From: an uncultured delta proteobacterium
Lineage (GTDB): Bacteria; Desulfobacterota; Syntrophia; Syntrophales; UBA2185
Direction of reading: 5' to 3'
Assembly: GCA_963729715.1 (NCBI GenBank)
Contig: CAVSPA010000002.1
Span: 1 to 40,819, forward strand
DNA: 40,819 nucleotides
The translations under genes were made by a program, and so were the position numbers. Below are positions 6,508 to 36,150 of the stretch, one piece after another. The stretch's first letter is position 1, and every line of letters begins with the position of its first letter. The notes beneath the pieces were generated by a model, which was given only the letters and a program-made list of their open reading frames with translations, was not told where the DNA came from and made no database searches.

Positions 6508-6535
6508 TTTTAAGAATATTACCATTCTCTTAAAG
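6508..6535 (-). repeat. dif-like 11-6-11 site, copy 1
   Basis: Reverse complement CTTTAAGAGAA TGGTAA TATTCTTAAAA; both flanks are homologous to those of copy 2. Confidence 0.7.
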
Positions 6536-6589
6536 ATAACCAGATATTTCGTGATATTTCCTTAGACATCTGTTACTAAATCAGAATAG

Positions 6590-6835
6590 ATGAATCTGGC
6601 TATCATATTAGTGATTATTTGTTTGCTCAACCTCCCCTTCGGATACTGGCGGGGTCACGTGAGGACGTTTTCATTTCCGTGGATTCTCGCAGTTCATCTG
6701 CCGGTTCCTCTCGTAATTATTGTGCGTATACTTGGCGGGGTTGGCTGGCATATTCAAACGTTTCCCTTATTGGCTGGGGCTTATTTTGTGGGACAGTACT
6801 TGGGAGGCAACCTTTATACTCAGTTGAAGAAGTGA
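6590..6835 (+). CDS. Small hypothetical membrane protein
   Basis: Three hydrophobic segments; NLPFGYWR and AVHLPVP motifs. Confidence 0.75.
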   Translation: MNLAIILVIICLLNLPFGYWRGHVRTFSFPWILAVHLPVPLVIIVRILGGVGWHIQTFPLLAGAYFVGQYLGGNLYTQLKK

Positions 6836-7393
6836 AATTGACAAAATACATTCCTGCCAGCTCCTTCCCATAATCATCAGGTATCAACCCACCCCCAGTA
6901 AAGATTACGGATTGAGATCTTCAACTCGACTACTGGATTACACCAGCTTGTATCAACAGAATGTTCTTATACGGTGCTTCTATATTTACTAAAAACCGCA
7001 GTCTCCTGCGTATTTCATACTAAACAGATTCCCGGAACATCGAATTTACGTTTTTAACCATAACAAATTATTCCGGGATTGTGGCTGATTTTACGGATTC
7101 AATGTAAATACAATGATGCTGGAGGGATACTGATAACTGGTTGTAATCTTTATAGGAACAATTTCAGTTACGATAGATGGGGTGGGTGAGTAGAACTTGC
7201 TGTTATCACTAAGAATATGATTTCTGGAAATATACAAGCATTCAATCGTTAATCAATAATCGCTTCTTGACTGAAACACATATCAGTTTTTGCCAATCTC
7301 AATTACATTTCTAACGGATATAATTCAAAAACATAGAATTCTAAGTTAACTTGTTGTACAGAATAAGAGACAGCTTAGGTGGAAGGTTCGTGT

Positions 7394-7960
7394 ATGCGAG
7401 TAAACATCTTTGGCAGAGGCATAGACAGGATGCCTGATCTGGCATTCAGGATAATGGCCTTGATGTTTAAGATAAGAGATACATTTATCCAAAAGGACAA
7501 GCTTCTGGATGAATTTGGCATCCACCAAGGTCAGAGCGTTGTTGATTATGGATGTGGGCCGGGATCATATATCAGAAAAGCATCTGAACTGGTGGGCAGT
7601 GGGGGTAAGGTCTATGCAATTGATATTCATGAACTGGCAATTGAATCTATCAAGAAACGCATCTCAAAAGAAAATCTGCACAATGTAACCGCGCTGGTAG
7701 CCTCGAAGGAAAGATGCCCATTGAACGATAACAGCATCAACATTATCTATGCTCTGGATATGTTCCATATGGTTGCAAATCCGATAATATTCTTAAAAGA
7801 GCTTAACCGGATATGCAAGCCTGACGGGGTCTTGTTTATAGATAACGGTCATCAGAAACGGGATACGGCTAAGACAAAGATCAGTGCCTCGGAAGCCTGG
7901 GAAATTATGGAAGAGAAGCGGCGATATATGAAATGCAGGCCCATTAAATTAAATAGATGA
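7394..7960 (+). CDS. Class I SAM-dependent methyltransferase
   Basis: VVDYGCGPG motif I, VYAIDI, KPDGVLFI; ATG 7394 follows a GGAAGG RBS. Confidence 0.9.
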   Translation: MRVNIFGRGIDRMPDLAFRIMALMFKIRDTFIQKDKLLDEFGIHQGQSVVDYGCGPGSYIRKASELVGSGGKVYAIDIHELAIESIKKRISKENLHNVTALVASKERCPLNDNSINIIYALDMFHMVANPIIFLKELNRICKPDGVLFIDNGHQKRDTAKTKISASEAWEIMEEKRRYMKCRPIKLNR

Positions 7961-8475
7961 GAATACTTTTTGCAAAAGTTATCATTTTCATCGTATTAGT
8001 CCCGGGGACTGTCGTCGCGATTGTGCCGTATATCATATTGCGCCGATCTGGTGTGATACATTGGCCGGGTATATCGGTAATAGGGAGCCTCGCAGGCTTT
8101 TGGGGAATTGTTTGTGCAGGCCTTTCTCTCTATTGTGCATGGGAATTTGCGGTTCACGGGCATGGAACACCCGCGCCAATCGATCCGCCGCAGGTTCTTG
8201 TAACCCAGGGACTCTATAAGTTCAACAGGAATCCGATGTACGTTGGCATCGTTGGCGTAATTCTGTCGGAAGCGCTGTTTTTCGGGAGTTTGTCATTGCT
8301 CATATTCGCCATTGTTTTGTGGTTTGGGTTCCATCTCTTCATCATCTTCTACGAAGAACCGCATCTTCGGCGTAAATTCGGTACATCATATCAGGAATAC
8401 TGTCGAAGAGTGCCCCGGTGGGGAATAGCTCTCCGGTCATTCCGAATCTTCTTCACCAGTATTTTTATCTATTAG
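7957..8475 (+). CDS. Isoprenylcysteine carboxyl/phospholipid methyltransferase family membrane protein
   Basis: GTPAPIDPP, GLYKFNRNPMYVG, EEPHLRRKFG..Y..Y...VPRW; ATGA overlap with the upstream gene. Confidence 0.9.
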   Translation: MRILFAKVIIFIVLVPGTVVAIVPYIILRRSGVIHWPGISVIGSLAGFWGIVCAGLSLYCAWEFAVHGHGTPAPIDPPQVLVTQGLYKFNRNPMYVGIVGVILSEALFFGSLSLLIFAIVLWFGFHLFIIFYEEPHLRRKFGTSYQEYCRRVPRWGIALRSFRIFFTSIFIY

Positions 8476-8548
8476 TTCCATCCGTAATCCTGATGAAAGC
8501 CCAGCACCAAACAGTTGGTAGCAACTGTGTTTCACGTCAAGTAGTATT

Positions 8549-9700
<1,152 letters not shown>

Positions 9701-9986
9701 AATGATTTTGATTATACAAGGTGGACACGAGAGCCGGTGCATTTCCTATTTTCATTGATCGAGCTTACGCAGTTCCGGTCGTAACATGCAGACCTGAAGC
9801 TCCCATTTCTTTACTGACGACAAAAAATAAATACCTTCCTATAATGTCGTTTTTCTAATTGAGACAGCGGATACTATATTTCAAATGGGAACAAACGAAG
9901 AAGCCGCAACCTTTATTAGCTTGCGGTGCGATATCCGGACTTGCAAACTAAAGAGGACTTTCTTTGATTACTCAAATAAATTTAGG

Positions 9987-10029
9987 ACAGCACCCGGTTC
10001 CTACTTTTCTTGTCAAAAACGGGTGCTGT
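9987..10029. terminator. Stem-loop, possible terminator
   Basis: 10-bp stem ACAGCACCCG/CGGGTGCTGT downstream of the minus-strand gene ending at 10109; loop is long. Confidence 0.35.
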
Positions 10030-10108
10030 TCTTGTGATGGCTTCAGCTAAGGATGCGTAACGGAAGCGCATCTCCATCCTTTGCTATTTAAAGCTTGGTT
10101 GCTGAGCT

Positions 10109-10429
10109 CTATCTGCTTCCACCAGAAGTCGGTCCATGAGTATTCGATCCACCAGTAGTCGGTCCATGCTCCCAGTAATCTGATGAAAAGATCTTGCCAT
10201 CCTTAACAACTACCTTGTCGCCAACCTTCCATGGAGTTTGCCCATTGACGGTAATGGTTTGTACTTTGCCTTTCTCGTCCTTCACAGTCACAGTGACTTT
10301 ATTGCCGCTGCTCTTGGTCTCACCGGTAACCGTCCCGAAAACAATGAAGCTGTCGGTTGCCGCCAAACAGAAACCCACTACGCTCAGAACAAAAACTGCT
10401 GCAACAACCAAAACAAAAAACTTCTTCAT
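10109..10429 (-). CDS. Small secreted beta-rich protein with C-terminal HGPT(T/S)GGS repeat
   Basis: MKK plus hydrophobic signal peptide; GAGG RBS; duplicated motif at 30-bp spacing. Confidence 0.8.
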   Translation of the reverse strand: MKKFFVLVVAAVFVLSVVGFCLAATDSFIVFGTVTGETKSSGNKVTVTVKDEKGKVQTITVNGQTPWKVGDKVVVKDGKIFSSDYWEHGPTTGGSNTHGPTSGGSR

Positions 10430-10827
10430 ATGATTTTACCTCCTCTCCCGTAATTTAGGTCTGTTTTTAGATCTGTGTCACTGTACGTTAACTAGGGATA
10501 GGCCAACTTAACTGTTGAATTGATGGAAACCTGACTATGATTGTGAGGAACATAGTTGAAAGCCTCACCGTATGCTTAAGGGTACGTTAACTCGTTGTCA
10601 AGTCATTTTGGGGATATTTAGAGTATGCCATGGGAGGAAGAGGCGTATTCAAGCTTATAATTGGTAATATTCATTTTCCCCTATGCATTAATGGTCAAAC
10701 TTTTGGCAGTGATAACCAGCACAGTCCATATTTATTCTGTCTCACCTATTCAGTTCGGGTTGTAACGTGCAAATATTCAAGCGTGTATTTTCGTGATGAA
10801 GACGTTATCCGCTCCTTCCTTGTCCAC

Positions 10828-10990
10828 AAACTGCCATCTTTGATTTTCATTGTAGATTTCACATGGGAATCGTGATATCAAAACTCTCACATCAATGACA
10901 TTGTGTAAAAGTTTCGGAACCGTTTAGCTTCGTCTGGAGGTAATATCAGATGATTATTGAAACCCCGTTTCTCAAAAGAGGCGGGGTTTT
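10828..10990 (+). promoter_or_regulatory. Repeated promoter-leader-terminator unit, copy 3
   Basis: TTGTAG-N18-GATATC ... TGATTATTG then AAACCCCGTTTCTC-AAAA-GAGGCGGGGTTTT hairpin plus T-run, 30 bp before the next start. Confidence 0.65.
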
Positions 10991-11019
10991 GTGTTTCATG
11001 TAAAGGAGGAGGTTATGCC

Positions 11020-11832
11020 ATGATTCGCAAAAGCATTATTTTTGTTTTAATCTTCATAGGCGTCACCGTAGGATCAGCATCTGCCGTTTGCCCCGTGCCG
11101 CAGATCACCATAGCTAGCAAACATATTTATTTTACCGGGGACCAGATCTATCTTCAGGTTAGTCATGCGCAAGGGGTCATGATCGACTTCAAATTTGATT
11201 ACAAGAACATCAATACCGATTTGTTCAGTCCCGATAAACCTTACCAGACGGACTACGCCACGAAGGTGGCTAATCTTTCCGTGGCGGACACGACGACGCA
11301 AGGTACGGTAACCGAAAACCAGTCCGGGCATTGGAAGGGATACGCCCGGGCCAGGTGTACGCTTGGGCAGCCCAACAAGATGACACCGCCGCCGACCGCT
11401 ACGAGCGACTGGAGCTCACCTGTTGAGTTTACCGTCCTTGACAAGGGCAGCAACGGTATTTTCGCGACGGTAAGAACAGACACTCCGAGTTATTCCGGGT
11501 CCTGTCCGAAGACCGTTGTAGCCTATGCCAAGATACAGGCCTTTCTCCCGGGCACGACGGTGAACTATTCGTGGCTTCTGTCTGACGGTCAGACCGCCCC
11601 GGGGGGCAAGCTGACATTTAGTACCCCGGTCATCCAGGACACCGGTGCGATCGGTTTTGTGGTGGGTGGGCAGAGCGCCGGTCAATACAAAGATCCACCG
11701 CATTCGGGCCCGATATACCTTGTTATTAATGGTCAAAAGGCGGCCTTTACCATGCCGGCGGCATCGTATCAGGTAAACTGCACCCTGAGCCCCGTAATAA
11801 AGGCACCGATTACAAATAAGAAATTTCCCTAG
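11020..11832 (+). CDS. Secreted hypothetical protein, beta-rich with Cys pairs
   Basis: GGAGGAGG RBS, ATG at 11020, signal peptide ending ASA; YSGSCP...VNC segment. Confidence 0.8.
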   Translation: MIRKSIIFVLIFIGVTVGSASAVCPVPQITIASKHIYFTGDQIYLQVSHAQGVMIDFKFDYKNINTDLFSPDKPYQTDYATKVANLSVADTTTQGTVTENQSGHWKGYARARCTLGQPNKMTPPPTATSDWSSPVEFTVLDKGSNGIFATVRTDTPSYSGSCPKTVVAYAKIQAFLPGTTVNYSWLLSDGQTAPGGKLTFSTPVIQDTGAIGFVVGGQSAGQYKDPPHSGPIYLVINGQKAAFTMPAASYQVNCTLSPVIKAPITNKKFP

Positions 11833-11975
11833 GTGCTACAGTTTTTAAAGGTTTTGCCATGAGGTATCGTGAGAAACCGGTCTATTTGACATATGGTACA
11901 AGTTCCAGAATCGGTTCGATATGGATAGTACAGTCCGTGACCATTGAAGATAAAATATGAAAGAGAGGTGCCATC

Positions 11976-13346
11976 ATGACAGAAAGAGGAAAAGACATTA
12001 GGCATGCGTTTATGCCAGTGCTTGTGGTTTGCCTCCTCTTACTGACATGCACGGCGTATGCAGCCCCGGCTGCTGCCCAGAAGAGTACCCCGCAGGTGCA
12101 AGCCGCACCAAGTGCGGCATCAAGCCTGTTAAATCCCAACGCTCCGCCCAAGGGCACAATAACCATAAGCGCCTCCAGCAAAGCCAATGTCAACGCATCA
12201 ACTTGGTATACCGGCAGCTACCAGTATATACAATGGACGTGCAACGGCACCCGCTCCAATCTCGTGGACGTTACACTCTGGCAGAACAACAGCAAAGCTG
12301 TCGTTATTGGCACTGCAATAGCCACAGGGCAAACCGCCTATACCGTTCCTTGGGACACGCGTGCCGGGCAGTATGAGCTTCGAGTGACCAGCGAAGACGA
12401 TTCCCGCATAGAAGCTAGGCAGGCTGTTAATATTGTTCCCACAACCTTAACCGTAACAACGCCAAAGAAAGACGACTCTTGGTATGCAGGCGGGACATAC
12501 CAGATTGCATGGCAGATTCAGGGCACCCAGACAAGCGTCAACCTTTCCTTATGGCAGTTGTCTGCCGACAAGACTATTAACATCGGTACAGGGATTACGG
12601 GCGGAAACATGCAGTATACGGTGCCCCTGACCCTCCCCCCGGATCAATACTTTCTGTACGTCAACGGCAAGGATGCGCCCGGCCTGATGGGCGCGCAACA
12701 TCTGTTTATTACTGCAGCCACCGTGACCATTATTCAGCCACAGGCTAACTCATCGTGGGCACCAGGACAGACATACCCGATTGCGTGGCAGTTTATGGGC
12801 AATCCAGGGCCGCTGAAAATTGAATTCTTTAACGCATCCGGTTCGTTTATTATTGCAGACAACGTTCCGCCGGGTACAGGTGGCGCCGGATTTTACAACT
12901 GGAAAGTTATCAGTTTGCAAAATGGTTCATACCAAGTAAGAATAACAGGCCAGTCATCAGGTGCCCCGTCAAGCACAAGCCCGCCTGTAAGTATCATTAA
13001 CCCATACATCAAGTATACTTGGGCAATGAACTCGGCTGCACCCTATGCGTATTATGGAACGCCTTTCACTATTCACTGGGAGTCCTTCGCTTGCGGAGAC
13101 AAGGTTAATATTACTATTACTGATAGCACGCCTGATCATAGTAATTTTGCTTATGACACGACTGAGGCTGTGCGAAATAAGGTGTATCTCCAAGCGACGC
13201 AATATTCATTAAGCGGAGGCAGCGGCCAATACGTGTGGATACCGCCAGCACCTCCCGACCCGAATACCGGGAATAGATGGTATAACATTCAACTGTATTC
13301 TTCCGGTGGGTGTCAAGGCAGCACCGAGGTTTTTGAATACAAATAG
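11976..13346 (+). CDS. Secreted protein with 3-4 tandem Ig-like (Ser/Thr-rich, Kre9-like) repeats
   Basis: Signal peptide; repeated W-x-x-G-x-x-Y-x-I-x-W...G-x-Y-x-L/V-R-V/I units. Confidence 0.8.
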   Translation: MTERGKDIRHAFMPVLVVCLLLLTCTAYAAPAAAQKSTPQVQAAPSAASSLLNPNAPPKGTITISASSKANVNASTWYTGSYQYIQWTCNGTRSNLVDVTLWQNNSKAVVIGTAIATGQTAYTVPWDTRAGQYELRVTSEDDSRIEARQAVNIVPTTLTVTTPKKDDSWYAGGTYQIAWQIQGTQTSVNLSLWQLSADKTINIGTGITGGNMQYTVPLTLPPDQYFLYVNGKDAPGLMGAQHLFITAATVTIIQPQANSSWAPGQTYPIAWQFMGNPGPLKIEFFNASGSFIIADNVPPGTGGAGFYNWKVISLQNGSYQVRITGQSSGAPSSTSPPVSIINPYIKYTWAMNSAAPYAYYGTPFTIHWESFACGDKVNITITDSTPDHSNFAYDTTEAVRNKVYLQATQYSLSGGSGQYVWIPPAPPDPNTGNRWYNIQLYSSGGCQGSTEVFEYK

Positions 13347-13551
13347 GCGCGAGAGCCGGGAATCGTCAAGAAACTGTCTTCATTTTCTGGTGAGCTTATT
13401 TCTTGACTCATCATGCTGAATTTCTATCAGTAATCCACACCTTTATTGCTGAACATCAACACTCTCTTTGTAGGTGAACGAAACAGGCGATTGACTGCCA
13501 CGAATAATTCCTCTAAAAGGCGAGAAATCACTGTCAAGAAGGGGGGGCGGT

Positions 13552-14352
13552 ATGAGATGCATCACCGCATTATTTATAATCGTGCTCGTTATTGTCGTTT
13601 CCTCAATGCCGATGGCGGCGGAAAAGGAATTTACTAACTCAATCGGTATGAAATTTGTCCTCATCCCGGCCGGGACGTTTAACATGGGTTCGCCTTCCAA
13701 TGAGCTGGGACGGTGGAGTGATGAGACGTCGCACCAGGTGACAATCAGCAGGCCTTTTCACATGCAGACAACAGTGGTGACCCAGGGACAGTGGAAGGCT
13801 GTCATGGGGAGCAATCCGTCGCATTTCACCAATTGCGGCGACGACTGCCCCGTGGAGCAGGTTTCCTGGTACGATGTCCAGGAATTTATCCGGAAACTCA
13901 ACCGGCAGGAAGGGACGGACAAGTACAGGCTTCCCACGGAGGCGGAGTGGGAATATGCGGCGCGGGCGGGGACGACAACACCCTTTAATACAGGAAACTG
14001 CCTTTCAACGGAACAAGCGAACTATAATGGGAATTATCCTTTATCAGGATGTCCCAAAGGAGAGAATAGACGAAAGACCGTTCGAGTCGGGAGCTTTTCT
14101 CCCAATGCCTGGGGTCTCTATGACATGCACGGCAACGTCTGGCAATGGTGTCAGGACTGGTCCGGGGATTACCCTTCCGGCAGCATGACTGATCCCACGG
14201 GGCCATCATCAGGCCGTTACCGGGTTTATCGCGGCGGCGGCTGGGACAGCGGCGGCGCGAAAGGCTGCCGCTCAGCGCGTCGCGGCTTCTTCCGCGTCAC
14301 CCCAGACCGCGGGTGCCCCGCCGTGGGATTCCGCCTCGCGAGTACGGGTTGA
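13552..14352 (+). CDS. Formylglycine-generating enzyme (CLec-fold) domain protein, probable DGR target type
   Basis: FNMGS, PVEQVSW, RLPTEAEWEYAARAG, NAWGLYDMHGNVWQWCQD, RGGGW...GFRLA. Confidence 0.92.
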   Translation: MRCITALFIIVLVIVVSSMPMAAEKEFTNSIGMKFVLIPAGTFNMGSPSNELGRWSDETSHQVTISRPFHMQTTVVTQGQWKAVMGSNPSHFTNCGDDCPVEQVSWYDVQEFIRKLNRQEGTDKYRLPTEAEWEYAARAGTTTPFNTGNCLSTEQANYNGNYPLSGCPKGENRRKTVRVGSFSPNAWGLYDMHGNVWQWCQDWSGDYPSGSMTDPTGPSSGRYRVYRGGGWDSGGAKGCRSARRGFFRVTPDRGCPAVGFRLASTG

Positions 14353-14560
14353 AGGCAGATCATGCCGCGTTTACGGATACGGCAACCGTCCTTCCATACT
14401 GTCCAGACGCATGTCCTACTCCGGCGATGAGCCGGACGAATAGAGCCATAACCACATCAAAGAATTCTTTCCGTAATCATTAAAAAAGAAAGATGCCTCA
14501 GAGCAAGAACTCGTAGGTGTTAACAAGTGTTACAAGAATTCTTTCACGAATACCGATTAT

Positions 14561-14588
14561 ATTTAAGATAATGGTAATACTCTTAAAA
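14561..14588 (+). repeat. dif-like 11-6-11 site, copy 2
   Basis: ATTTAAGATAA TGGTAA TACTCTTAAAA; 14509-14572 is nearly identical to 28478-28541. Confidence 0.75.
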
Positions 14589-14618
14589 ATACCACTTTTT
14601 TGCCATAGTCATTGATAA

Positions 14619-14939
14619 TCCGATTATGTATTCCTCAATCAGTATGGAATACCTGTTGACCCCTCACCAACTAACTATTACGTGTGGAAACCGGCTCTAA
14701 AAAAATCTGGATTGAAACCACGATCAATGTATCAGACGCGTCATACCTTCGCGACTCTGATGTTAGACGCAGGGGAACATCCAGGATGGGTGCAAAAGAT
14801 GATGGGTCATGAGACCATGCAAATGATCTACGAGCGCTATTACAGTTACATTCGCAACTATGAGAGGGATGAAGGTACGGCGTTCATGGAGAAGGTCTAT
14901 AATCCATCGGGTAATATCATTCAGGAAAGTGTAGTCTAA
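14619..14939 (+). pseudogene. 5'-truncated phage/island tyrosine integrase
   Basis: Frame extends upstream of the listed ORF (SDYVFLNQYGIPVD...WKPAL); RHTFAT, MMGH and catalytic-Tyr region present; N-terminal part absent. Confidence 0.88.
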
Positions 14940-15047
14940 AAAGTGGTCACTGGAAAAATTTTACACTACTTTTACACCAAATAAGAAATGGGGATTTAGA
15001 CCTGATCTCTAACTCCCCATTATCACTGAGAAAATTGACTTTGATTT

Positions 15048-15070
15048 TGGTGCCGAGGCCGGGACTTGAA
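15048..15070 (-). other. att site: displaced tRNA 3' end (Leu- or Phe-like)
   Basis: Minus strand TTCAAGTCCCGGCCTCGGCACCA (T-loop to CCA) with no 5' tRNA half. Tandem arm-like repeats TTTTACAC (14959, 14970) and GTACCCCA (15202, 15213) on either side. Confidence 0.85.
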
Positions 15071-16383: not shown

Positions 16384-17186
16384 ATTTCTTCCCCCCACGA
16401 CCTGCTAAAGATTTCTTCAGGAACGACAAGATTCCACGTCGCCACAAAGCGCCCCGGCTTCCGTCTGCTGCGTTCGAGGTAATGCGGACGAAGGGGGCGA
16501 AGATCGCGGAGGGCCTTCATGTGTGCATCCTCAACCATCAAGGTTTCCCGATGCTGCTCCAGGTAGAATCCGACCTTTGCGGCCGTGGTGGCGTTTCCGA
16601 GGAGAGAAACGTATCCGACTACTTTATCGAGATCGAAAAATTCCACGGTCTCAAGGGAACGCCATATTTCCTCCCAGCTTCCCGTCAAATCCGGACGATG
16701 AAGGACATCTACGAAGGTCCTCTCCAGACCGGTGGCACGGACTCCAAGACCAGCGCGGTCGATCATGATCACATTGAATGCTTCCTCACCTTTTCGACTT
16801 AGGTTCTTCGGAAAGCCCACGCCTTTGAATCCACAGGAGCGAAAAGTCACGGGGCGCGAGGAGTGACCTGTAAGATATGTGAAGCGCTCATACACAGAAT
16901 AGGCCTTGCCATGAACCTCCAAGGCCGTATGGTAAGCCAGAATTGCGTCTTTTGTCATTCTGGAAGCGAGAAGATAAGGATCAAAGGCAAAGTTATCTGG
17001 TGACGCGCCATGCGGGACAACGGCATAGAGCCCTCGATGTACCCTTACTATGCGGCCAGACTTCACGTAATAGGCAAGGAGGGATTCCTGCGCCCTGGGA
17101 CTGCGTGGGCTTTCGGAGGCAAGGAAGTCGTTTAGTTCCTTTCCCGTAAAAACCGGATGCACTTGAAAGAAATTCGCAAGCTTCAT
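16380..17186 (-). CDS. abiEi: AbiEi-type antitoxin/transcriptional regulator
   Basis: N-terminal wHTH (RVHRGLY), AYHTALEVHG, LERTFVDVL; directly upstream of abiEii. Confidence 0.9.
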   Translation of the reverse strand: MKLANFFQVHPVFTGKELNDFLASESPRSPRAQESLLAYYVKSGRIVRVHRGLYAVVPHGASPDNFAFDPYLLASRMTKDAILAYHTALEVHGKAYSVYERFTYLTGHSSRPVTFRSCGFKGVGFPKNLSRKGEEAFNVIMIDRAGLGVRATGLERTFVDVLHRPDLTGSWEEIWRSLETVEFFDLDKVVGYVSLLGNATTAAKVGFYLEQHRETLMVEDAHMKALRDLRPLRPHYLERSRRKPGRFVATWNLVVPEEIFSRSWGEEI

Positions 17187-17210
17187 AATGTTGTTTTTGA
17201 CGTTGTTCTA

Positions 17211-22600: not shown

Positions 22601-23598
22601 AGTATGCCGAGGCGAGAAAGGCATACAAAGAGGGGCTGGAGCTTGCGAAGGAACTGAACTATCCTCGACAACAAGGTGTCATCCTCAGCATGCTCAGCAC
22701 GCTGGCGATTCGTGAGCGCAAGCTGAGCGAAGCGATGGATCTTGCCCGCGCTGCTCTGGCGATATGGCGGCAACTTGGGGAGCCGGCTATGGAAGCAGGG
22801 GCGTGGCATAATCTCGGCGTAGTCTTTCAGCAAGCAGAGCAGTGGGACGAGGCCGAGCATCACTACCGGGAGGCAGCGCGAATCAAGGAACAACAAGGTA
22901 ACTTGGCGGAGGCTGCAAAAACATGGAACAATCTGGCGTTGGTGATCTGGAGCGCCGGCAGGCCGGAATTGGCGGAGATGTGGCTTCGAAAGTCGATTGA
23001 GGTTGATCGGAAGCTCAGAAACCCCATAGAACTGGCGCCCGATCTGAGCAATCTTGCCAGCATATTGCTGGAACTCCCCGGGCGGTTAGTCGAGGCGCGG
23101 CAACTGGCGGAGGAGGCACTGGCCATTTACACGACGCTCGGCCCCGGCGCAACCCAAGTTTGGAGGATATACATCCTTCTCGCCGAGATCGCGGAGAAGG
23201 AGGCCGAAACTATTTCCGACCACCGCCTCAAGGCGGGATGTCAAACGCAAGCGCGCGAATACCGCCGCCTCGCCCGCGACGCTGAATACAACTTCACCGG
23301 AACGCGCCATGAACTTCGGCAGTTTGCTCCGCAGATCCTTGCCGTCGTTGACGCTTGTGCCGGAAAACCCGAAGCGTGCCAAGCCGTGGCCAACTTTCAG
23401 CAACAGCTTGTGCAAGCCGGAGTGGAAGGCCAGGCCCTGTCACACGCCCTTGACCGCGTACTTGTCGGAGAGCGCAATGAGAATGTGCTGTGCGAGGGAC
23501 TGAGCCAGAAAGCCGCGATGATTCTCAAAACCATCCTTCAAGCACTTTCCAACCCATCTACGCTCAAAGACCTGCTCTCGGACCAAAAGCAGGAATAA
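19672..23598 (+). CDS. CHAT (caspase-like) protease - STAND/NB-ARC ATPase - TPR protein
   Basis: LPWELL, LHFDGHG and LSACQT (His/Cys dyad); Walker A GFGGQGKT, Walker B LILDNLE, HPLSL; C-terminal TPRs (WHNLG, WNNLA). Confidence 0.92.
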   Translation: MSLELNLRFPDNDHVIVNFDGEDSGVLPFTNPLTAKDRQDIQWYIEVYGAHSLGDPDDSEATRIAFQLPAWGKALFESVFRERAAARLFNQFQDSKGKARLLTISSGHPAVLGLPWELLHDPAQGGVFLFNETPRISIRRCVAGATGGRPAFKPKPREQLHLLFVVSRPLSSGFLDPRADARAVLDAVEQHAPGRFTWEFLRPATIDALVWRLEDNTRPPVDILHFDGHGVFDRHGGLPEAVVKGKQPIRFPLEQEAFKEKVAKPTIYSPPNTGYLLFEKTDAQPDLISAQRLAENLHRQKVALIILSACQTAALGDNDEPMGSVAACLTAAGIPAVLAMTHSVLIQTTRALFGAFYKDIARGHGIGEALDNARRYLVNHPEKYEVQRGSNHVVLKLYDWFLPALYQSGADLPLLKKSEAVSQKPEVAPPRTNLPARPGSGFFGRRRELWDIECLFADKTRRITLIGFGGQGKTALAQEAGRWLVRTGMFQAAVVLRYNQIPSTDALGVAISNLGSVLGENIIDAKAAEEALKKTSTLLILDNLEALTQDSLRELLDAAVDWSEAGGSRVLCTTRSPDFGHTCYPAAGTFVHRRILLGGLGHRAMPDDALEWFGELMKLPPLPAISSPPREALVELFDRVKFHPLSLLVLAGQLKTRAPDDLVLRLNELLVVLPLGSPAEEPAEVGTMNIMPELVASLQLSLDQLDEAAREVLPRLGVFQSGAMEENLLAITKISKQVWPTLRRQLEAAALIEVETLRGLTVPFLRFHPTLAPMLWSQLGAEKKAHQGAAHRQRYYVFADFLRQLDIKSPLQARAIALRETPNLLHAVQAALDAGDPKVGEFADYVNHFLDRLGFLKESDALVAKTLAAAGETGSKAWVLAQSNRGEQLLVAGRVADAVDVFRAVLEKLGDAPSYERAVALGRIGRCFSDSGRPDLAALHARDSITIFEQLEQTHQVKRQRAVSLADLADSLQQQGQYAEARKAYKEGLELAKELNYPRQQGVILSMLSTLAIRERKLSEAMDLARAALAIWRQLGEPAMEAGAWHNLGVVFQQAEQWDEAEHHYREAARIKEQQGNLAEAAKTWNNLALVIWSAGRPELAEMWLRKSIEVDRKLRNPIELAPDLSNLASILLELPGRLVEARQLAEEALAIYTTLGPGATQVWRIYILLAEIAEKEAETISDHRLKAGCQTQAREYRRLARDAEYNFTGTRHELRQFAPQILAVVDACAGKPEACQAVANFQQQLVQAGVEGQALSHALDRVLVGERNENVLCEGLSQKAAMILKTILQALSNPSTLKDLLSDQKQE

Positions 23599-24035
23599 GC
23601 CCAGATTCTGGAGACGACCTTTCAGAGTGAAGCAGAATGTATCATGACGACAAGTATATTCACGGCCTTGGAGAGGAAGAGGGGCTTGTGAATAGTATCA
23701 CCCCTCAGTTTTTGTGCAGAGCATCTTCGGGACCAACAAACCCTTGGAGGCGACGATTGACATCGCGTTTGCAGAGTGCTTTCATCTGTTAAAGCCGTAA
23801 TCATTATTCCTCATCTCGTACAGATGGTAACGCTTTGCAGGAAACAGTGATTCCGATGGATGGATGATCTTGAAAAATCTTAATACAGCTTTTTTGATTG
23901 AAGCCTTCCTGTAACAAAGCCTCCGGAGATTTTTCCGGTATACATCCTTTCAGACTATAATTATTATTGACTGTACTAAATAATTTGAAAATTCTGTATG
24001 AAGGTGTATAGCATGACTTTAGCATGATGAGATAT

Positions 24036-24082
24036 CCGGATGTGTTAAAAAAAGCCGCGCACCGATGAGCTTTTTGTTAGGG
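24036..24082 (+). other. 3' half of an attC site
   Basis: AAAAGCCGCGCACCGATGAGC...GTTAGGG, 49 bp before a gene start. Confidence 0.5.
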
Positions 24083-24130
24083 CAATATTGATGAAGAAAA
24101 GCACCCCCGAAATACGTCTAGCAGGAGTCC

Positions 24131-24700
24131 ATGATGGATATACTTTGCCTTATTAATTTCTCAGCAAGACTCGGTCGTTTTTTGGCATCTTGGGCAACAG
24201 TGGTTGGAGTTGTCATGATATTCATTGGCTTGAAAACGATTAGAAGCAACAATTCAGTAAAAAGAATGGAATTGATCAGCAAAATATACAATCGATTCTT
24301 GAATGATGAATTATATGGATTCTATATCAGAATTCGTAACAATGAATTCATCAATTGGCAAAATGATAAAAATGATGAGCTTCTGTTAAATCAGTCTTTA
24401 ACTCTTTTTGATGAAGTGAATTATTTAAGGACCCAAAAATTATTAGATATAAAGGCATGGGAATACATAGCTAGTGAAATTCAGCATTTTGCACTTAATG
24501 ACAGTGTCTGGGATTATATGATCCAGAGGATTCGAGAATGTGGGGACAGAGGGTTCCCAGCAGAGATTATGCCTTTCACTGGATTCCCTGAACTACTTAA
24601 TGAGGTGCCGAAAAAATTTAGGGCAAATCCTTTTCCAATTGTTCCCCATAGGTATAATGCCCTTTTCAATGCGTCAGCCTCTTCCCAATCATCGTCTTAA
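24131..24700 (+). CDS. Hypothetical cassette protein with N-terminal TM helix
   Basis: AGGAG RBS; AT-rich; one hydrophobic segment followed by a soluble domain. Confidence 0.75.
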   Translation: MMDILCLINFSARLGRFLASWATVVGVVMIFIGLKTIRSNNSVKRMELISKIYNRFLNDELYGFYIRIRNNEFINWQNDKNDELLLNQSLTLFDEVNYLRTQKLLDIKAWEYIASEIQHFALNDSVWDYMIQRIRECGDRGFPAEIMPFTGFPELLNEVPKKFRANPFPIVPHRYNALFNASASSQSSS

Positions 24701-24845: not shown

Positions 24846-24873
24846 TTTTAAGATAATGGTAACTTTCTTAAAA
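24846..24873 (+). repeat. dif-like 11-6-11 site, copy 4
   Basis: TTTTAAGATAA TGGTAA CTTTCTTAAAA. Confidence 0.75.
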
Positions 24874-25040: not shown

Positions 25041-25979
25041 ATGGTCAGTATGATTTCTCCCAAACGCCATCATTATTTGCCTCAATTTTATCTCGGAAGA
25101 TTTTGTCGAGAGGATAAATTATGGGTTTTCGATAGAGAAAAAAAAGAATTTCGACAGCAAACCCCTAATAATACGGCGGTCAAAACACATTATTACTCAG
25201 TTGAAGAGAAGGATGGGGGAAGGAGGGCAGAGATAGAGGCTATGCTGTCCCAGATTGAAAGCTACGCTAAACAAGTCATCGATAAGCTACTTGCGCGAGA
25301 AGCTTTAACAGACGACGAAAAGCAAACACTCTCCATCTTTATGGCATTTATGATGAATCGTGTTCCTGATTTCGAGAAATCAGTTAATGCAATAGAAAAA
25401 CATATGATACAGCGTGTGGCTGATATGATGTTCTCTGACGAAAAGCGTGTTCAATCAATGATGGATGAGCGAGAGAGGAAAACTGGAGAGAAGTCGGATA
25501 CATCTGCTGAAGAGTTGGTTGATTTCCATAAGAGGGGGCAATATGAAATTATCATTAACAGGAACGAGAGTTTGCGTTTAATGCTTACCACGAGCATGGA
25601 GCTATCAAAATATTTCGCATTAATGGATTGGGTCGTCTTCCACTCTTCACCAAGAACATCTTTCATCACGACAGATAATCCCCTAATTCTTGTTCCGCCA
25701 GTAGACTACAAACCTGGATTCTTTGGCGTAGGTATAATCACAGAAGGGGCACGAAAGGTTTTCCCCTTGTCTCAGGCTGCCTGTCTGATAATGTTTGATC
25801 ATGGAAATCTTCTTGAGCATCGTGACGCTGATATGACTTTGGTCCGTAAAATAAACTTAAGTCTAACAAGCCGTGCGGATAGGTTCGTAATTGGTCGTGA
25901 TGAGGCACTGGTAAGAAATTTGATTCGAACTACAAGGTTAACAGAATGGGAGCGTAAAGGGCGGATTAGCATAGGTTAA
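25041..25979 (+). CDS. DUF4238 domain protein
   Basis: KRHHYLPQFYL N-terminus, IE..LSQIE, FITTDNP and FPLS motifs. Confidence 0.85.
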   Translation: MVSMISPKRHHYLPQFYLGRFCREDKLWVFDREKKEFRQQTPNNTAVKTHYYSVEEKDGGRRAEIEAMLSQIESYAKQVIDKLLAREALTDDEKQTLSIFMAFMMNRVPDFEKSVNAIEKHMIQRVADMMFSDEKRVQSMMDERERKTGEKSDTSAEELVDFHKRGQYEIIINRNESLRLMLTTSMELSKYFALMDWVVFHSSPRTSFITTDNPLILVPPVDYKPGFFGVGIITEGARKVFPLSQAACLIMFDHGNLLEHRDADMTLVRKINLSLTSRADRFVIGRDEALVRNLIRTTRLTEWERKGRISIG

Positions 25980-26057
25980 GCAGTTGCTTCTTCCTTCACT
26001 CAACAACTTACTGGTCTTGCCGAAAGGTGTGTATTTCATCTCGTAATCATGATATAA

Positions 26058-26522
26058 ATGACACCCATGGACATGGAGGGTGACTGCAACGCCGTGGATG
26101 ATCCCAATCTTAAAATAGCTCGTGAGCACTTGGCGAAATTCGAAAGGTGCAAAGGAGAGCACATTGGTTTAAAAGAACTCGATTACGGTTTGGCGCTTCT
26201 TTACGATCTTTCAAGAGAAACCAATGATGAAGACACCGCGACTACGTGTGGAAGTTATGTTCGGACATATCAAACCATGATAGAGAAAGAGGCTACGCGT
26301 CTCCTAAAGAACAAAGATTCGATTGGAGCGGAAGAACTGTTCCATTGGTACAAGATAATGGAAGTATTTGAGGAATCTGGATTCCCGTTTTCAGATGGTT
26401 TCCATTCACTTTGGCAGGAGCTTCAACGCGAGGAAAGAGTCTTTGAAAGAGTTTTTGAAAAGCTTTTTAAAGAGGCTAGCCCTTCTATACAGCAAGACAT
26501 TCGGAAGCTGCTGAACTTGTAA
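26058..26522 (+). CDS. Hypothetical helical protein
   Basis: 154-aa ORF co-oriented with its neighbours; start uncertain. Confidence 0.6.
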   Translation: MTPMDMEGDCNAVDDPNLKIAREHLAKFERCKGEHIGLKELDYGLALLYDLSRETNDEDTATTCGSYVRTYQTMIEKEATRLLKNKDSIGAEELFHWYKIMEVFEESGFPFSDGFHSLWQELQREERVFERVFEKLFKEASPSIQQDIRKLLNL

Positions 26523-26680
26523 TTGAAAGAGCGAGCCAACCTATGGGTACAGAAAGTACGCAAGAACCGGATGAACCTTTTTACTTCCTTCCGCCTTTAT
26601 CAGGCCATCTATAACACAAAACATGGGTAAAACATGTGGACACTATAAACATATTAATTTGACACACAGAACTAGCTCTC

Positions 26681-27253
26681 ATGGCGGATCCATCTCTTTT
26701 CGGTATCGGCAAAGCCCAATGGGAATTAATCAATTCCTTTGCTAATTGGTTTGCGGCTATTGGATCGATTGCTGCGGCTGCTACCGCATTATACATTGCA
26801 AATCGCTCGGCAAGACCCACTGCTCGCGTATCTGTTGGTCACCGAATTTTGCTCGGTTCTGGAATCAAAAAACCATATCCTGAATTTGCAGTATTTCGAA
26901 TCGTCAATACGGGAGATCGCCCCATTCGAGTGAGCCAGATCGGATGGAGAACAGGACTCTTCCGCAAACGCTTTGCCATTCAGATGTATGAGCCAACTCA
27001 AAGCAGTCCATTACCGGTGGAGCTTTCCCACGGACAGGAAGCGTCATGGATGGTTCCACTTAGAGACCGAGAAGTACATTGGATAGATCGCTTCGCCAAG
27101 GACATGTTATCCCCGCATCATCGAGTATCGCTTTGGACACTTAGGGCACAGTTTTTTTCATCGGTTGGATACATATTCGAAGCCAAGCCGGAGGAAAGCT
27201 TGATGAAGCCTCTCAGAGAAGCCTGTGAAAGACTACGGAGATCTGAGAGCTAA
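26681..27253 (+). CDS. Hypothetical cassette protein (N-terminal TM plus beta domain)
   Basis: WFAAIGSIAAAATALYIA TM; stop codon inside R'' AGCTAAC; degenerate partner ACTAGCT at 26671. Confidence 0.8.
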   Translation: MADPSLFGIGKAQWELINSFANWFAAIGSIAAAATALYIANRSARPTARVSVGHRILLGSGIKKPYPEFAVFRIVNTGDRPIRVSQIGWRTGLFRKRFAIQMYEPTQSSPLPVELSHGQEASWMVPLRDREVHWIDRFAKDMLSPHHRVSLWTLRAQFFSSVGYIFEAKPEESLMKPLREACERLRRSES

Positions 27254-27292
27254 CCCGCGCATGCACACGGCCTGTGATTCTCATCGTTATAC
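27248..27292 (+). other. Internally deleted attC site
   Basis: AGCTAAC CCGCGC ATGCAC...GTGAT...GTTATAC. Confidence 0.65.
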
Positions 27293-27385
27293 TCTTTCTA
27301 TCCGAAATGACCGGGAACTGATGCAGAATGTTGCCTCGGAAATTCAATCAATATGCTTTGCAGGAGGAATGTTAGGTGACTGAAT

Positions 27386-27769
27386 ATGAACATAGGAAAA
27401 GGTTGGCTAATAATCGAGGAATCTGTCCATAAGGGCACAAAATCCCTCGTTTCCATAATTAGCCCAAAACGCACAGGCAGTTACGTCCAAAAGTACATGG
27501 AGCAAATGTATGTTGATAGGTTCGCTTCAATTGAAGAGAAAATTGCATATAAGAAAAAGCCGGAGTCGTGGCCTTATAGAGCTAATACGCAAGAACACTA
27601 CTCTGGAATTATAGATTGTGGTCATGATCCAATAATGATGGCTTACTATTGCCACAAGCTCAATCTTAAAAACGGAGTTTTAAAGTACACCTTCAAAACA
27701 CTAAAAGGTCAAACTAATGACCTTCGGCCCATATTTGAAGAAGTTGCACGTAGCATTAATGTCACCTAA
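27386..27769 (+). CDS. Hypothetical integron-cassette protein
   Basis: Preceded by GTTAGGT (27371), the exact complement of its own R'' ACCTAAC (27764). Confidence 0.85.
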   Translation: MNIGKGWLIIEESVHKGTKSLVSIISPKRTGSYVQKYMEQMYVDRFASIEEKIAYKKKPESWPYRANTQEHYSGIIDCGHDPIMMAYYCHKLNLKNGVLKYTFKTLKGQTNDLRPIFEEVARSINVT

Positions 27770-27850
27770 CAATCGGGTCCCTTGACCCGGAATACGCTCG
27801 CGGTTTTTATTTGGGCATTCCGGCCCGGCAAGTGACCCTTAGCGTTAGTC
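27764..27850 (+). other. attC site
   Basis: ACCTAAC...GGGTC...CCGGAAT...ATTCCGG...GACCC...GTTAGTC, an 87-bp imperfect palindrome. Confidence 0.85.
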
Positions 27851-27873
27851 CCACTCACAGAGGACGATCGCGT

Positions 27874-28371
27874 ATGAGCTTGCGGCAAATACCCAATCCT
27901 GGCGTTCTCGGAATCGCGGACTCCTTTCGTGAAGCGGCTCAAGCCCTGAATGAGTTCTCAGACTCACGGATGTCAGTCCCAGCCGTTGTAAATGCCGCGT
28001 TTGCCCTTGAGCTGTTCCTTAAGTCGCTAAACATTGAGTTCCGTTTTGAGGACCCGACCGAGATCATGCCAGGCGTTACCGCTTTTGGCCGCGTTCGAGA
28101 GGTGCCGCTGAAGACCGGCCATCTACCTTCAGAGCTTTTTCGCGCCCTGGACCCGACTATTCAAAGTAAACTGGAGAACCACTTCGCCCAAGCGGCCTAT
28201 CGGAACAAACCAACCACATTGATCGCGGCGTTGCAACCGTATGATGGCGTCTTTCAGGCATGGAGGTACATCTTTGAGGCGCAGGCGGGGACCATTGATA
28301 TTCAGGCTCTGCTTGAGTTGTTGCGGTTTCTGTCCGAGACGATCCACGGCTTTCCTTCCAGGTGGGCCTAA
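27874..28371 (+). CDS. HEPN-like domain cassette protein
   Basis: NAAFALELFLKS...GH...WRY pattern; ATG at 27874 with AGAGGA RBS right after attC. Confidence 0.7.
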   Translation: MSLRQIPNPGVLGIADSFREAAQALNEFSDSRMSVPAVVNAAFALELFLKSLNIEFRFEDPTEIMPGVTAFGRVREVPLKTGHLPSELFRALDPTIQSKLENHFAQAAYRNKPTTLIAALQPYDGVFQAWRYIFEAQAGTIDIQALLELLRFLSETIHGFPSRWA

Positions 28372-28529: not shown

Positions 28530-28554
28530 TTTTAAGATAATTGATTTCTTAAAA
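28530..28554 (+). repeat. dif-like site, copy 5 (3-bp deletion in the centre)
   Basis: TTTTAAGATAA TTG ATTTCTTAAAA; lies between convergent genes. Confidence 0.7.
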
Positions 28555-28644: not shown

Positions 28645-28707
28645 GACTAACGTTCGGCTCAGGCGCACGCCGTTCGTGGCGCGTCGTCCTGAAAGCCGTT
28701 GTTCGGT
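28645..28707 (-). other. attC site (minus strand)
   Basis: ACCGAAC AACGGC TTTCAGG...CCTGAGCCGAAC GTTAGTC. R'' ACCGAAC is complementary to GTTCGGT at 31048-31042, upstream of the ATPase gene. Confidence 0.8.
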
Positions 28708-28806
28708 TGCACGCGCACTTGAACTGAACTGCCAGGAGAGACTGCAACTGGTCAAAAGTGCGGATAGTCACGGGAACGACTCATAGCATTGGTTTAACTG
28801 TAAGCC

Positions 28807-30975
28807 TCATTTCAGGGCCAGTACGTCTCTGTAGAGAGTCCTCAAATGCTCGTCGGACATATCCAAGATCGGTTCATACATAAAAGAATTCAGGTGTATG
28901 TTCTCCGGTGTCATGAGAACCACCCGTTGAATGGTTTCAACGGTGTCAACATCGCCCGTGAATAGCTCCTTGAATTTTGCCAGTAGCTTGGTTGTTTGAT
29001 TTGACTCGATACTGTCAACGAACTTGGCGTCATTAATTTTCCCCACCATGAATTTTTCAGCTGCGATTCGTATGGCAATAGACAGGACAATCTTGTTCTC
29101 GAAGTTGATGCCAGCGCAAGCGTTGAGGCATTCTCCCGCCTCGCGCTGGATTACATCAATCACAAGACTGGTGCCATTGGGACCTGCTCCAGTTGTACAA
29201 AATACCGAGTTGAAAATCGCATCCAGCTCTTTTTCGGTAATGTTAGTAGAGTCGCTCTTCCAGTGCAGTAGTGACGTGAGCTTAGTAAAATCAGGATCTT
29301 TATCGCCCTTTGTGAATTCAATGATGTTACGAATAAAAGGAATTGATGCGATCTTCTTTTTAGGATTGGTGAAGAAATTTGGCTTCCAGTCATTCACGAA
29401 AACGTTTCGGATGCCGGTTGCCTGCTCCAGTGAAATACCATCACTGCTCTTCAATGCCATAAGGCAATGCGAATAGTCGACGAACCTGCTATTTATGGTG
29501 CGGAAGAAATCAAAATTGTGCGTCAGAACGATCTGGCTGAAGTGCGGTTCTTCGGCAATATCTTTCAGGTATTGAATGATGGCGTACTTGTTCTTGTAGT
29601 CGAATGAGTCAGCGATGTCATCGATAATAAATATGGTTTCCTGCTTTGCCTTTTTTCGAACTCCAACCTCAAATATAATATTAAGTATGTAGAATGCCCT
29701 CTTTTCTCCCGTGCTTAATGTCTGCATCAATGCATCTTTCTCTACAGGTGCAGCGTCCACTCCGTCCTCAAAGGTGAAGGCGAGGCTAAGCATCGGTTCT
29801 TGACCCAAGATGACTGGGATCCTGTTCTTAGCTGTCAGCTTGAAAGGGACAAAAAAACGCCTATTGAAAATCTCAATAACCGACTCCCACTGCGTCCGCT
29901 GCTTACTTGCTTCCTCTTCGATTTCCCTCTTCCTCTTCTCAGCGGCCTGATATTTCTCAACCAAATCTTTGTAGAGTTCAAATCGCGCCTTAAAGTACGA
30001 CTTCCAAATTTTCTCCTTAAAGCTCTCAATATTTGTCAGCTCTGGAAGAAGCTCCTCATGTTCTCCTAAGTACGCCTCAAAACCCCGGACAGTCACGTTT
30101 TTTTGGATCAGCTTTTCAATGTCCAAAAACGTCTTCCTCAGTTCCTTATCGTTCGAGATGCCATCCTTCTCCTTCTTTATCAGCTCCTCGAGCTGCGTCT
30201 GGCTTGTAATCTCCAGCTTCTCGCCGGCATTTAAATTCACTGTATGCTTAGCATCGAAGAACCCATTGTCAGCGAGGCTCTTCGCAATGGTAGCGGCGTT
30301 GTAGTAGTTAAATATGCCCTTCTTGAAATATGTAGAAGCAGCTAACAGGTCGTTGTATTTTTTTATGTAGCTCTCAATCGCCGTCTTCACATCTTTGGTT
30401 GCAAGAAAGCCCAGAACCTTTTCGTCAAAAATAGTATCATAGTTAACGTCGGCGAATGGAGCATCTTTTTGTGCAAACACTTCATCCCTGACACGGATGA
30501 GTGCAAGGTAGAACTCCTCAGCACTCTTGGTAAAGGTGGAGGAAATCACTTTCTCCAAGTCCTTTTTTGACCCAGATTGCTCCTTTAAAGCCTTCAAGAA
30601 TACTCCTTTGGACTTATCGATATCTAGGTGAAGGTCCTCGTATTCTTTTCGCAGTTTACTATCCACGAGCAGGGTTGATGTCTTCTCCGTGTGCCCGATA
30701 ATTCCATCGTCATAGGGCCGAATGACAACAACGTTTTCCTTAGGCAAATCAACACCATTCTCGTCGGTGATTTTTCTATTGGACACTCGACCTGGAAATA
30801 TCCGATCCCTGGAAGGAACCGCCTCAGCTATATCCTTGAAAGTCTGTGCGAGCGATGTCTTCATCGCACCATTTGCGGCATAGATGGCATAAGCTTTGTG
30901 CTGCGAAAAATCTAACTCCGTCTTTAGCTTCTTAATGCCGTAGCAATTTTCTATGTCAATATTCAACTTGTTCAT
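28807..30975 (-). CDS. PrrC/RloC-like ABC-type ATPase with coiled coil and uncharacterised C-terminal domain
   Basis: ENCYGI, variant Walker A AANGAMKTS, signature LSTGE, Walker B/D-loop IIDDIADSFD, LTHN; no CxxC zinc hook seen. Confidence 0.8.
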   Translation of the reverse strand: MNKLNIDIENCYGIKKLKTELDFSQHKAYAIYAANGAMKTSLAQTFKDIAEAVPSRDRIFPGRVSNRKITDENGVDLPKENVVVIRPYDDGIIGHTEKTSTLLVDSKLRKEYEDLHLDIDKSKGVFLKALKEQSGSKKDLEKVISSTFTKSAEEFYLALIRVRDEVFAQKDAPFADVNYDTIFDEKVLGFLATKDVKTAIESYIKKYNDLLAASTYFKKGIFNYYNAATIAKSLADNGFFDAKHTVNLNAGEKLEITSQTQLEELIKKEKDGISNDKELRKTFLDIEKLIQKNVTVRGFEAYLGEHEELLPELTNIESFKEKIWKSYFKARFELYKDLVEKYQAAEKRKREIEEEASKQRTQWESVIEIFNRRFFVPFKLTAKNRIPVILGQEPMLSLAFTFEDGVDAAPVEKDALMQTLSTGEKRAFYILNIIFEVGVRKKAKQETIFIIDDIADSFDYKNKYAIIQYLKDIAEEPHFSQIVLTHNFDFFRTINSRFVDYSHCLMALKSSDGISLEQATGIRNVFVNDWKPNFFTNPKKKIASIPFIRNIIEFTKGDKDPDFTKLTSLLHWKSDSTNITEKELDAIFNSVFCTTGAGPNGTSLVIDVIQREAGECLNACAGINFENKIVLSIAIRIAAEKFMVGKINDAKFVDSIESNQTTKLLAKFKELFTGDVDTVETIQRVVLMTPENIHLNSFMYEPILDMSDEHLRTLYRDVLALK

Positions 30976-31110
30976 TCCAACTCCGATCTTTTTGTTATGT
31001 AGACCTCAGTCTATCTACACTGAGGGTTCGGATAGTGTACCACCGAACCATGTTAATTTGGGTCCATATAAAAACTCAAACACCGCAATATTTGTCGCAT
31101 TACTGAAAAT

Positions 31111-31138
31111 ATTTAAGAAATTATGCATTATCTTAAAA
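31111..31138 (-). repeat. dif-like 11-6-11 site, copy 6
   Basis: Plus strand ATTTAAGAAAT TATGCA TTATCTTAAAA; orientation opposite to copy 5. Confidence 0.75.
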
Positions 31139-35206: not shown

Positions 35207-35207
35207 A

Positions 35208-36143: not shown

Positions 36144-36150
36144 CTATTCT

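Follow-up and report, generated by a model that had tools for sequence, protein, structure and literature searches.

Palindromic 11-6-11 sites between gene modules of a Syntrophales contig: a candidate exchange system of a putative catalytic-domain-only tyrosine recombinase

Among the single-recombinase Xer systems, such as XerS/difSL and XerA, the recombination site is located beside the recombinase gene, and cleavage at the edges of the spacer between the two arms of such a site is standard tyrosine-recombinase chemistry. Laboratory recombinase-mediated cassette exchange employs heterospecific lox or FRT sites, whose spacer-coded specificities do not cross-recombine and between which a DNA segment can be swapped. 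In XerH, the inner 5 bp are read by the N-terminal domain, and a helix of the catalytic domain is positioned in the outer major groove (PMC5241119), while the accessible part of PMC8138268 presents simple recombinases as a combination of core-binding and catalytic domains and does not name a catalytic-only group. In Acinetobacter Rep_3 plasmids, 28-bp dif sites (pdif) with two 11-bp arms and a 6-bp spacer lie between modules, with crossover in the site and a need for equal or near-equal spacers; exchange occurs at equal spacers with one mismatch tolerated, and replacement of a single module by two crossovers has also been proposed (PMC13141974, available sections). Insertion sequences homing beside pdif sites are furthermore described in the available part of PMC10132070. 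Here, we describe six pdif-like sites in a 40,819-nucleotide stretch of DNA (the window; positions 1 to 40,819 of contig CAVSPA010000002.1, assembly GCA_963729715.1) of an uncultured delta proteobacterium of the order Syntrophales. In what follows, labels beginning with G, C and L denote the genomes, contigs and loci compared; G000 is the assembly of the window and C2 the contig which constitutes it.

6508..6535, minus strand: site 1, TGGTAA type, inverted relative to site 2 and not part of the ordered run
14561..14588, plus strand: site 2, TGGTAA type
19426..19453, plus strand: site 3, TACTGA type, the first type of the order
24846..24873, plus strand: site 4, TGGTAA type, a direct repeat of site 2 at a spacing of 10,285 bp
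28530..28554, plus strand: site 5, TTGACG type with a 3-bp deletion
31111..31138, plus strand: site 6, TATGCA type (TGCATA on the minus strand)

By sequence comparison, these sites are members of an 11-6-11 family whose adjoining DNA has been swapped among related genomes, and we consider it likely that they are the crossover sites of a tyrosine recombinase of approximately 205 amino acids, comprising a catalytic domain only and carried on mobile islands. All six sequences were re-found at the positions given by the initial annotation, which had also correctly placed them between genes; none falls in a Pfam-annotated gene, and site 6 overlaps a single open reading frame (107 amino acids, familyless, opposite strand). 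The spacer TGGTAA is indeed common to three copies, and the 11-6-11 geometry holds for five sites, but not for site 5, where the spacer is 3 bp. This copy has a 47-bp left flank identical with that of three intact TTGACG sites in relatives and a left arm which is also of the TTGACG-site type, and therefore reads as a TTGACG site minus 3 bp; it is likely inactive. The site pattern matched the five copies with a 6-bp spacer and had no matches in 100 dinucleotide shuffles. A scan of the whole assembly with a position weight matrix, allowing spacers of 0 to 12 bp, as the initial annotation had recommended for the genome and its relatives, found 13 spacer-6 matches with scores above 30 and a single spacer-3 match (site 5), with none at any other spacer, while three block shuffles produced no match scoring at least 23. 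These 13 strong copies are spread over contigs C2, C3, C4 and C5 and sit amid restriction-modification, toxin-antitoxin, transposase and integrase genes. The arms are prolonged by a conserved AT on both sides, with arm positions 2-3 variable and 4-10 fixed, and a third arm is found next to site 3 (19457-19467). The left arm of site 2 is indeed one base away from the XerD arm, as printed for pdif sites, but that base is C in 99% of the arms of this family and G in XerD arms.

The exact pattern occurs in 27/301 genomes of the order, against none for a reversed-pattern control, in 9/21 other genomes of the family and in 2/386 genomes of the phylum outside the order. A search at one mismatch added G029 and G131 and gave no match in G007, G208 and G037. 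Among 94 unique sites, from which 29 viral loci, own-genome loci and L128-L148 had been dropped beforehand and duplicates removed by sequence context, the most frequent spacers were TGCATA (22), TGGTAA (17), TACTGA (14), TTGACG (7) and TGCGTA (6). The 31 viral matches came mostly from AT-rich contigs, had unrelated spacers and were taken as chance, with a single contig (L070/L088) being kept. A conserved chromosomal primary site was considered and rejected, as neither the complete genome G007 nor G208 has a match at one mismatch and the L255 array sits within an insertion that ends in sequences other than these sites.

Comparison of the flanks across relatives indicates that homology changes at the sites. 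In fourteen pairs of distinct sites, one flank is common over 120-900 bp; past the arm on the other side, 13 of these pairs are at background level, and in most of the fourteen the spacers are equal or differ by one base. The left flank of site 3 is common to G168:C89, G107:C6 and G198:C7, with identity extending 6, 66 and 2 bp beyond the right arm, respectively. Where flanks were sorted into classes, using a threshold reached by 0/3000 shuffled pairs, TGGTAA sites combine left classes c1 and c5 with right classes c0, c3, c6 and c7 in seven of the eight possible ways, and same-class ends carry the same oriented spacer in 97/220 pairs, versus 5.6% at random. Among the contigs of sequencing run X4, for which contigs only were compared, a 69-kb contig matches window positions 15044-15250, 17383-19519 (32 differences, 2 gaps), a 43-bp piece resembling site 3 and 31255-31342, with different DNA replacing the 11.7 kb between 19519 and 31255. 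In the contigs of four sequencing runs (shares all below 0.2) neither inversion nor circle junctions were found for sites 2 and 4, a null result that is not probative. The changes of flank and cargo at the sites support the suggestion of the initial annotation that they bound swappable defence and accessory modules. Its further argument, that site 2 lies before a broken gene, is weak: the integrase remnant starts approximately 26 bp beyond the right arm and thus provides no evidence of a cut in the spacer.

The spacer types, furthermore, follow one order in one orientation, TACTGA>TGGTAA>TGCGTA>TTGACG>TATGCA>CATACA, in 28/31 adjacent unlike pairs from 22 arrays, and sites 3-6 of the window conform to it. 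Six types, with five one-base variants folded in, entered this test, other spacers being excluded. Since the order was read off the same arrays on which it was tested, both order and strands were re-optimised in the null models (300 runs each), which reached maxima of 0.65 and 0.77 compared with the observed 0.90; related genomes are not independent. Equal types are adjacent in 2/33 cases (expected 6.1; P 0.04). A second site was present in 9/23 metagenome loci; four of these duplicate known loci or one another and fit the order, while the new loci L252, L255 and L265 fit it in four pairs, one with a one-base spacer variant. Five metagenome loci identical to known ones were excluded from this hold-out check. 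Type TACTGA, with which the order begins, is also the type adjoining the recombinase gene in G120:C90 and G156:C132. The 38 slots between neighbouring sites range from 29 bp to 16.8 kb with genes in mixed orientation, and a single pair has common content: a cassette of 8.2 to 8.5 kb that occupies slot TACTGA>TGGTAA in both G000 and G120 is 98.3% identical, whereas the other DNA shared by these genomes is 80-92% alike, mostly 85-87% in long core stretches. Two further slot pairs share merely 1.5 kb of IS110 and a 606-bp piece.

A tyrosine recombinase of about 205 amino acids (206 in the copy at L044:3843-4463) was found beside the sites in relatives, though not in the window. Neither this enzyme nor the order of spacer types features in the initial annotation. 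It passes no NCBIfam cut-off, scoring 85.5 bits against the integron-integrase cut-off of 265, and 580 of 901 near-length candidates are related to it at an E-value of 1e-30 or better. The catalytic residues R55, K82, H154, R157, H180 and Y189 are invariant in 27 sequences, and the predicted fold is a lone catalytic domain (predicted local distance difference test, pLDDT, 85.5), with XerA (5hxy; template modelling score 0.74) as the best structural match, followed by XerH. The clade associated with TTAAGA arms comprises 17 genes, eleven assigned by tree (support 95/88) and six by identity, five of the latter also by helix. A site is located 100-153 bp upstream of 7/17 (one with a 7-bp spacer) and 1.9-7.5 kb upstream of 7/17 more (two of them weak). 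When the DNA upstream of the enzyme genes is scanned by symmetry alone, spacers of 4, 6, 8 and 10 bp score alike, and the 6-bp value is taken from the matrix scan. Within the order, the motif occurs in 4/5 enzyme-positive genomes versus 22/295 others (Fisher P 2e-4, with kin not independent), while outside it G336 has three enzyme genes with a site at each.

The sequence of a catalytic-domain helix varies together with that of the arms. Helices of the form [YF]T[TE]TAL pair with TTAAGA arms, CAAITLM or SPPITLM with TATAGA arms, and the XerD-like LTRQ with XerD-like TT(A/G/T)ACA arms. The TATAGA sister clade is present in 5-6 copies per genome in G687 and G688, some as units of site, enzyme, cargo and site, while the third clade, with its LTRQ helix, has one or two sites per genome. 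These three clades suggest that the predicted recognition helix may set the arm sequence, and the covariation, together with the adjacency of site and enzyme, supports the earlier proposal that a single recombinase would act on the near-symmetric arms. The variable positions 2-3 and fixed positions 4-10 of the arm are consistent with an enzyme that has lost the domain responsible in XerH for reading the inner bases. Recombination by a lone catalytic domain unaided is nevertheless a putative activity.

Other candidates for the enzyme were rejected. In G000, three 299-amino-acid tyrosine recombinase copies and a two-gene pair present in duplicate show no relation of their ends to the sites, and other catalytic-only families in site-rich relatives (200, 230, 211 and 197 amino acids) have no matching site upstream. 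G000 harbors a 2.2-kb two-recombinase element in two 99.9% identical copies (C3:43460-45637 and C6:110104-112281) and a single-recombinase element of 1.0-1.1 kb in three copies (C4:698810, C10:113165 and C13:24516). In loci L128-L134, L138, L139, L141, L142, L145 and L146, labelled Bipolaricaulota or Thermotogota, a related catalytic-only recombinase has one palindrome 115-151 bp upstream, with XerD-like helix and arms and one or two per genome; this is possibly a compact Xer/dif system.

Several observations weigh against the assignment of these sites to exchange by the small recombinase. Different spacers are carried by 123/220 pairs of same-class ends, so that spacer identity is not strict or another process is at work. 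Module boundaries do map to the sites, but the crossover position is resolvable only to the site of about 32 bp and cannot be placed in the 6-bp spacer, where the initial annotation had sought it. Many shared flanks extend for just 45-65 bp and end at a second breakpoint motif, CTTCCT or CACCT, found 30-70 bp from the arm at 42/186 ends (null 15). Three adjacent pairs break the order, in G120:C68, in G198:C7 and at window sites 2>3, the latter two sites being separated by an island end at 15048-15070, and the new metagenome locus L247 violates it as well. No site was present in the sequence examined around 3/17 TTAAGA-clade genes, and G037 has the enzyme and no site at one mismatch. Conversely, no member of the enzyme clade was found in the draft assembly G000 (23/23 near-length candidates scored; longer or fused forms not searched), in the drafts G107, G168, G198, G162 and G142, holders of the richest arrays (all candidates scored), or in 22/26 motif-positive genomes, for which the top ten candidates per genome were scored.

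Of the alternatives, the one that survives best, though we regard it as unlikely, retains the same enzyme: the sites would be the ends of transposon-like units (site-enzyme-cargo-site) and the resolution sites of mobile islands, the arrays having been stacked by successive insertions, cointegrates and resolutions, with the order a record of that history. Units of 2.6-11.5 kb in G687 and G688, in some of which the enzyme gene is deleted, are in keeping with this, as are the frequent location of the enzyme gene beside mobile-element genes, the position of arrays inside larger integrated islands and the tandem TACTGA>TGGTAA>TACTGA>TGGTAA run of G198:C7. However, one order of six types is maintained across families even though the slot contents, save for the one shared pair, are unrelated, and the 98.3% identical cassette has switched both outer flanks at the arms of sites of two different types.

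That host XerC and XerD act on the sites as on Acinetobacter pdif, a possibility raised by the initial annotation, is improbable. The 28-bp 11-6-11 geometry and dif-like spacers are those of host-Xer sites, XerC and XerD genes are present in G000 (intact, on C4, away from dif) and in the five other genomes checked, including genomes without the small enzyme, and the motif is concentrated in a single order. The chromosomal dif candidate of G000, however, was identified at C4:260907-260934, at the maximum of the GC skew (C4:260093), where FtsK-orienting polar sequences (KOPS) also converge. With the site matrix, the two arms of this dif obtain -21 and -6, whereas the window arms range from +8 to +18. 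Compared with the twelve arms of the window, the D arm has 3-6 and the C arm 5-8 mismatches in 11 positions, and none of the 13 strong copies lies at the skew maximum. The six sites are thus not host dif, which is separate, located at the terminus and has other arms. Furthermore, the arms of the present sites are symmetric without a C/D distinction, and it is the enzymes with XerD-like helices that go with XerD-like arms instead. The notion that the palindrome is an operator of a DNA-binding regulator, possibly of the small recombinase-fold protein itself, with module edges coinciding through promoters, is highly improbable. Upstream of the enzyme gene, promoter-like sequence adjoins several sites, and recombinase-fold repressors such as FliZ exist (PMC3367168). 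However, 21/90 sites lie between convergent genes, in line with the argument of the initial annotation against a plain repressor site, and the distance to the next start ranges over 13-1095 bp; the spacer types, moreover, are conserved and stand in order, homology is interrupted at the site and the catalytic residues are invariant.

We therefore return to exchange by the small recombinase, for which the system would probably be dif-module-like, with its own enzyme and double crossover between heterospecific sites. One enzyme would bind both arms, reading mainly the outer bases by way of its catalytic-domain helix, and its subunits would cut where the arms meet the 6-bp spacer, with strand exchange favouring a partner site of equal spacer. 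Given this preference, unlike neighbouring sites would rarely recombine and seldom lose the intervening slot, which would thereby be protected from deletion, while two islands with the same type order could trade one slot by two crossovers. The window array would be an orphan, open to remodelling when an enzyme-carrying element is present; with the enzyme supplied, sites 1 and 2 would invert the predicted invertible block of 8 kb between them, and recombination between sites 2 and 4 would release a segment of 10,285 bp. For a more elaborate picture we see an even chance: a natural cassette-exchange platform in which addressed heterospecific sites number the slots of defence islands, a half-size recombinase swaps their multi-gene contents between species, enzyme clades are reprogrammed to new arms via one helix and an IS110 guide hunts the arms.

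The modules and flanks which the sites delimit in this defence-rich island are as follows, with positions of the window.

6536..14560, no strand: block between the inverted TGGTAA sites 1 and 2, with methyltransferases, an IS110-family element (8515-9728) and Ig-like and FGE-sulfatase-like genes
14514..14560, plus strand: left flank class c1, shared with site 5 (28478-28529) and found at 11 sites of the 94-site set
14614..15070, plus strand: C-terminal remnant of a tRNA-Leu island integrase, followed by a 23-bp copy of the tRNA-Leu 3′ end (15048-15070)
15415..19099, minus strand: AbiEii/AbiEi pair, second AbiEi and 156-amino-acid gene
19454..19519, plus strand: right flank class c0, with the third arm inside and a CTTCCT end; a shorter form follows site 4 (24874-24923)
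19672..24700, plus strand: slot TACTGA>TGGTAA, with a 1308-amino-acid CHAT-ATPase-TPR gene and a familyless 189-amino-acid gene
25041..28371, plus strand: slot TGGTAA>TTGACG, with a DUF4238 gene and four familyless genes
28807..30975, minus strand: slot TTGACG>TATGCA, with a 722-amino-acid ATPase matching the candidate defence model PDC-S46
31399..40600, minus strand: Type I restriction-modification operon with PDC-S02, PDC-S44 and YgjP-like genes
19513-19519, 24918-24923, 14509-14516, 1721-1749 and 23905-23933: second-motif junctions, where a flank ends at CTTCCT or CACCT

The tRNA-Leu copy at 15048-15070 is the end of an integrated island. Positions 18533-19458 are 94-95% identical in G168 and G107, while 31255-36134 is common to G107:C38 at 91%, with a TGCA-type site 118 bp ahead there too. 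The CHAT protease-ATPase-TPR protein (19672-23598; 59-60% GC) fills one slot and has no matches in 21 family genomes; it is a possible defence protein. Restriction-modification operons are repeatedly located downstream of TATGCA-type sites (L050, L053, L055, L059, L046 and window 31111), four of them via the same 155-bp flank. Non-coding segments at 5128-5270, 7078-7206, 9719-9843 and 10822-10996 recur at 5-10 places in the genome with 70-90% identity, and no tRNA genes or Rfam families were found in the window. Elsewhere in G000, a long low-complexity run with 50-bp self-similarity lies between two copies of a site plus hairpin (C7:315897-316423) and may be an assembly artefact.

A 414-amino-acid IS110 element and a derivative of about 78 bp are inserted 2 bp past an arm at nine places in several genomes, namely C4:660855-662355, C5:103284-104801, C7:314278-315794 and C3:39342-39420 of G000, and L230, L255, L264, L265 and L055. 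The left end of the C4 copy carries the guide-like sequence TTAAAAAT, identical to the arm end, while the C5 and C7 copies have GTAGTAAT in the guide-like position, identical to the right end of the derivative; a second segment follows the own right end of each copy. These insertions parallel the pdif-hunting IS1202 elements.

If the proposed exchange takes place, it would account for the stable layout of defence islands despite turnover of their genes, by a route unlike integrons or host-Xer dif modules. It also yields testable substrates in the form of six natural spacer types, a compact 205-amino-acid enzyme and clades with different arms. Should a lone catalytic domain recombine efficiently, the need for a two-domain clamp in tyrosine recombinases would have to be revised, and small orthogonal recombinases with ready-made heterospecific sites would become available.

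A literature search, which did not extend to most subscription papers and supplements, found no paper describing this system. The sites resemble pdif in their 28-bp length, two 11-bp arms and 6-bp spacer, and in having module boundaries at sites with matching spacers, although not strictly so. Unlike pdif, which has distinct XerC and XerD arms, alternates between C/D and D/C orientation and is found on plasmids with host enzymes, they have symmetric arms differing from those of the host dif, are co-oriented in a fixed order of types and lie in chromosomal islands with a candidate mobile half-size recombinase. As two defining features of dif modules fail, pdif is the closest known system, not the same system. 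With single-recombinase Xer systems such as XerH/difH (PMC5241119, accessible part) they would share the use of one enzyme on both arms, but those enzymes have an N-terminal DNA-binding domain, while the candidate here is a catalytic domain only, and act at one chromosomal dimer-resolution site at the terminus, in contrast to the many sites on four contigs. As in integrons, the recombinase gene stands beside the first site, pointing away from the module row, and there are orphan arrays without enzyme. In contrast to integrons, there is no attC-type hairpin (Rfam gave 0 matches; no attC model was run), the modules are multi-gene, 2-17 kb and in either orientation instead of mostly single-gene, co-oriented cassettes, neighbouring sites differ in spacer, the candidate enzyme falls far below the integron-integrase cut-off, and there is no IntI-family integrase in the window. 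The likeness in design is to recombinase-mediated cassette exchange, which is engineered, and of which we propose that the present system may be a natural counterpart.

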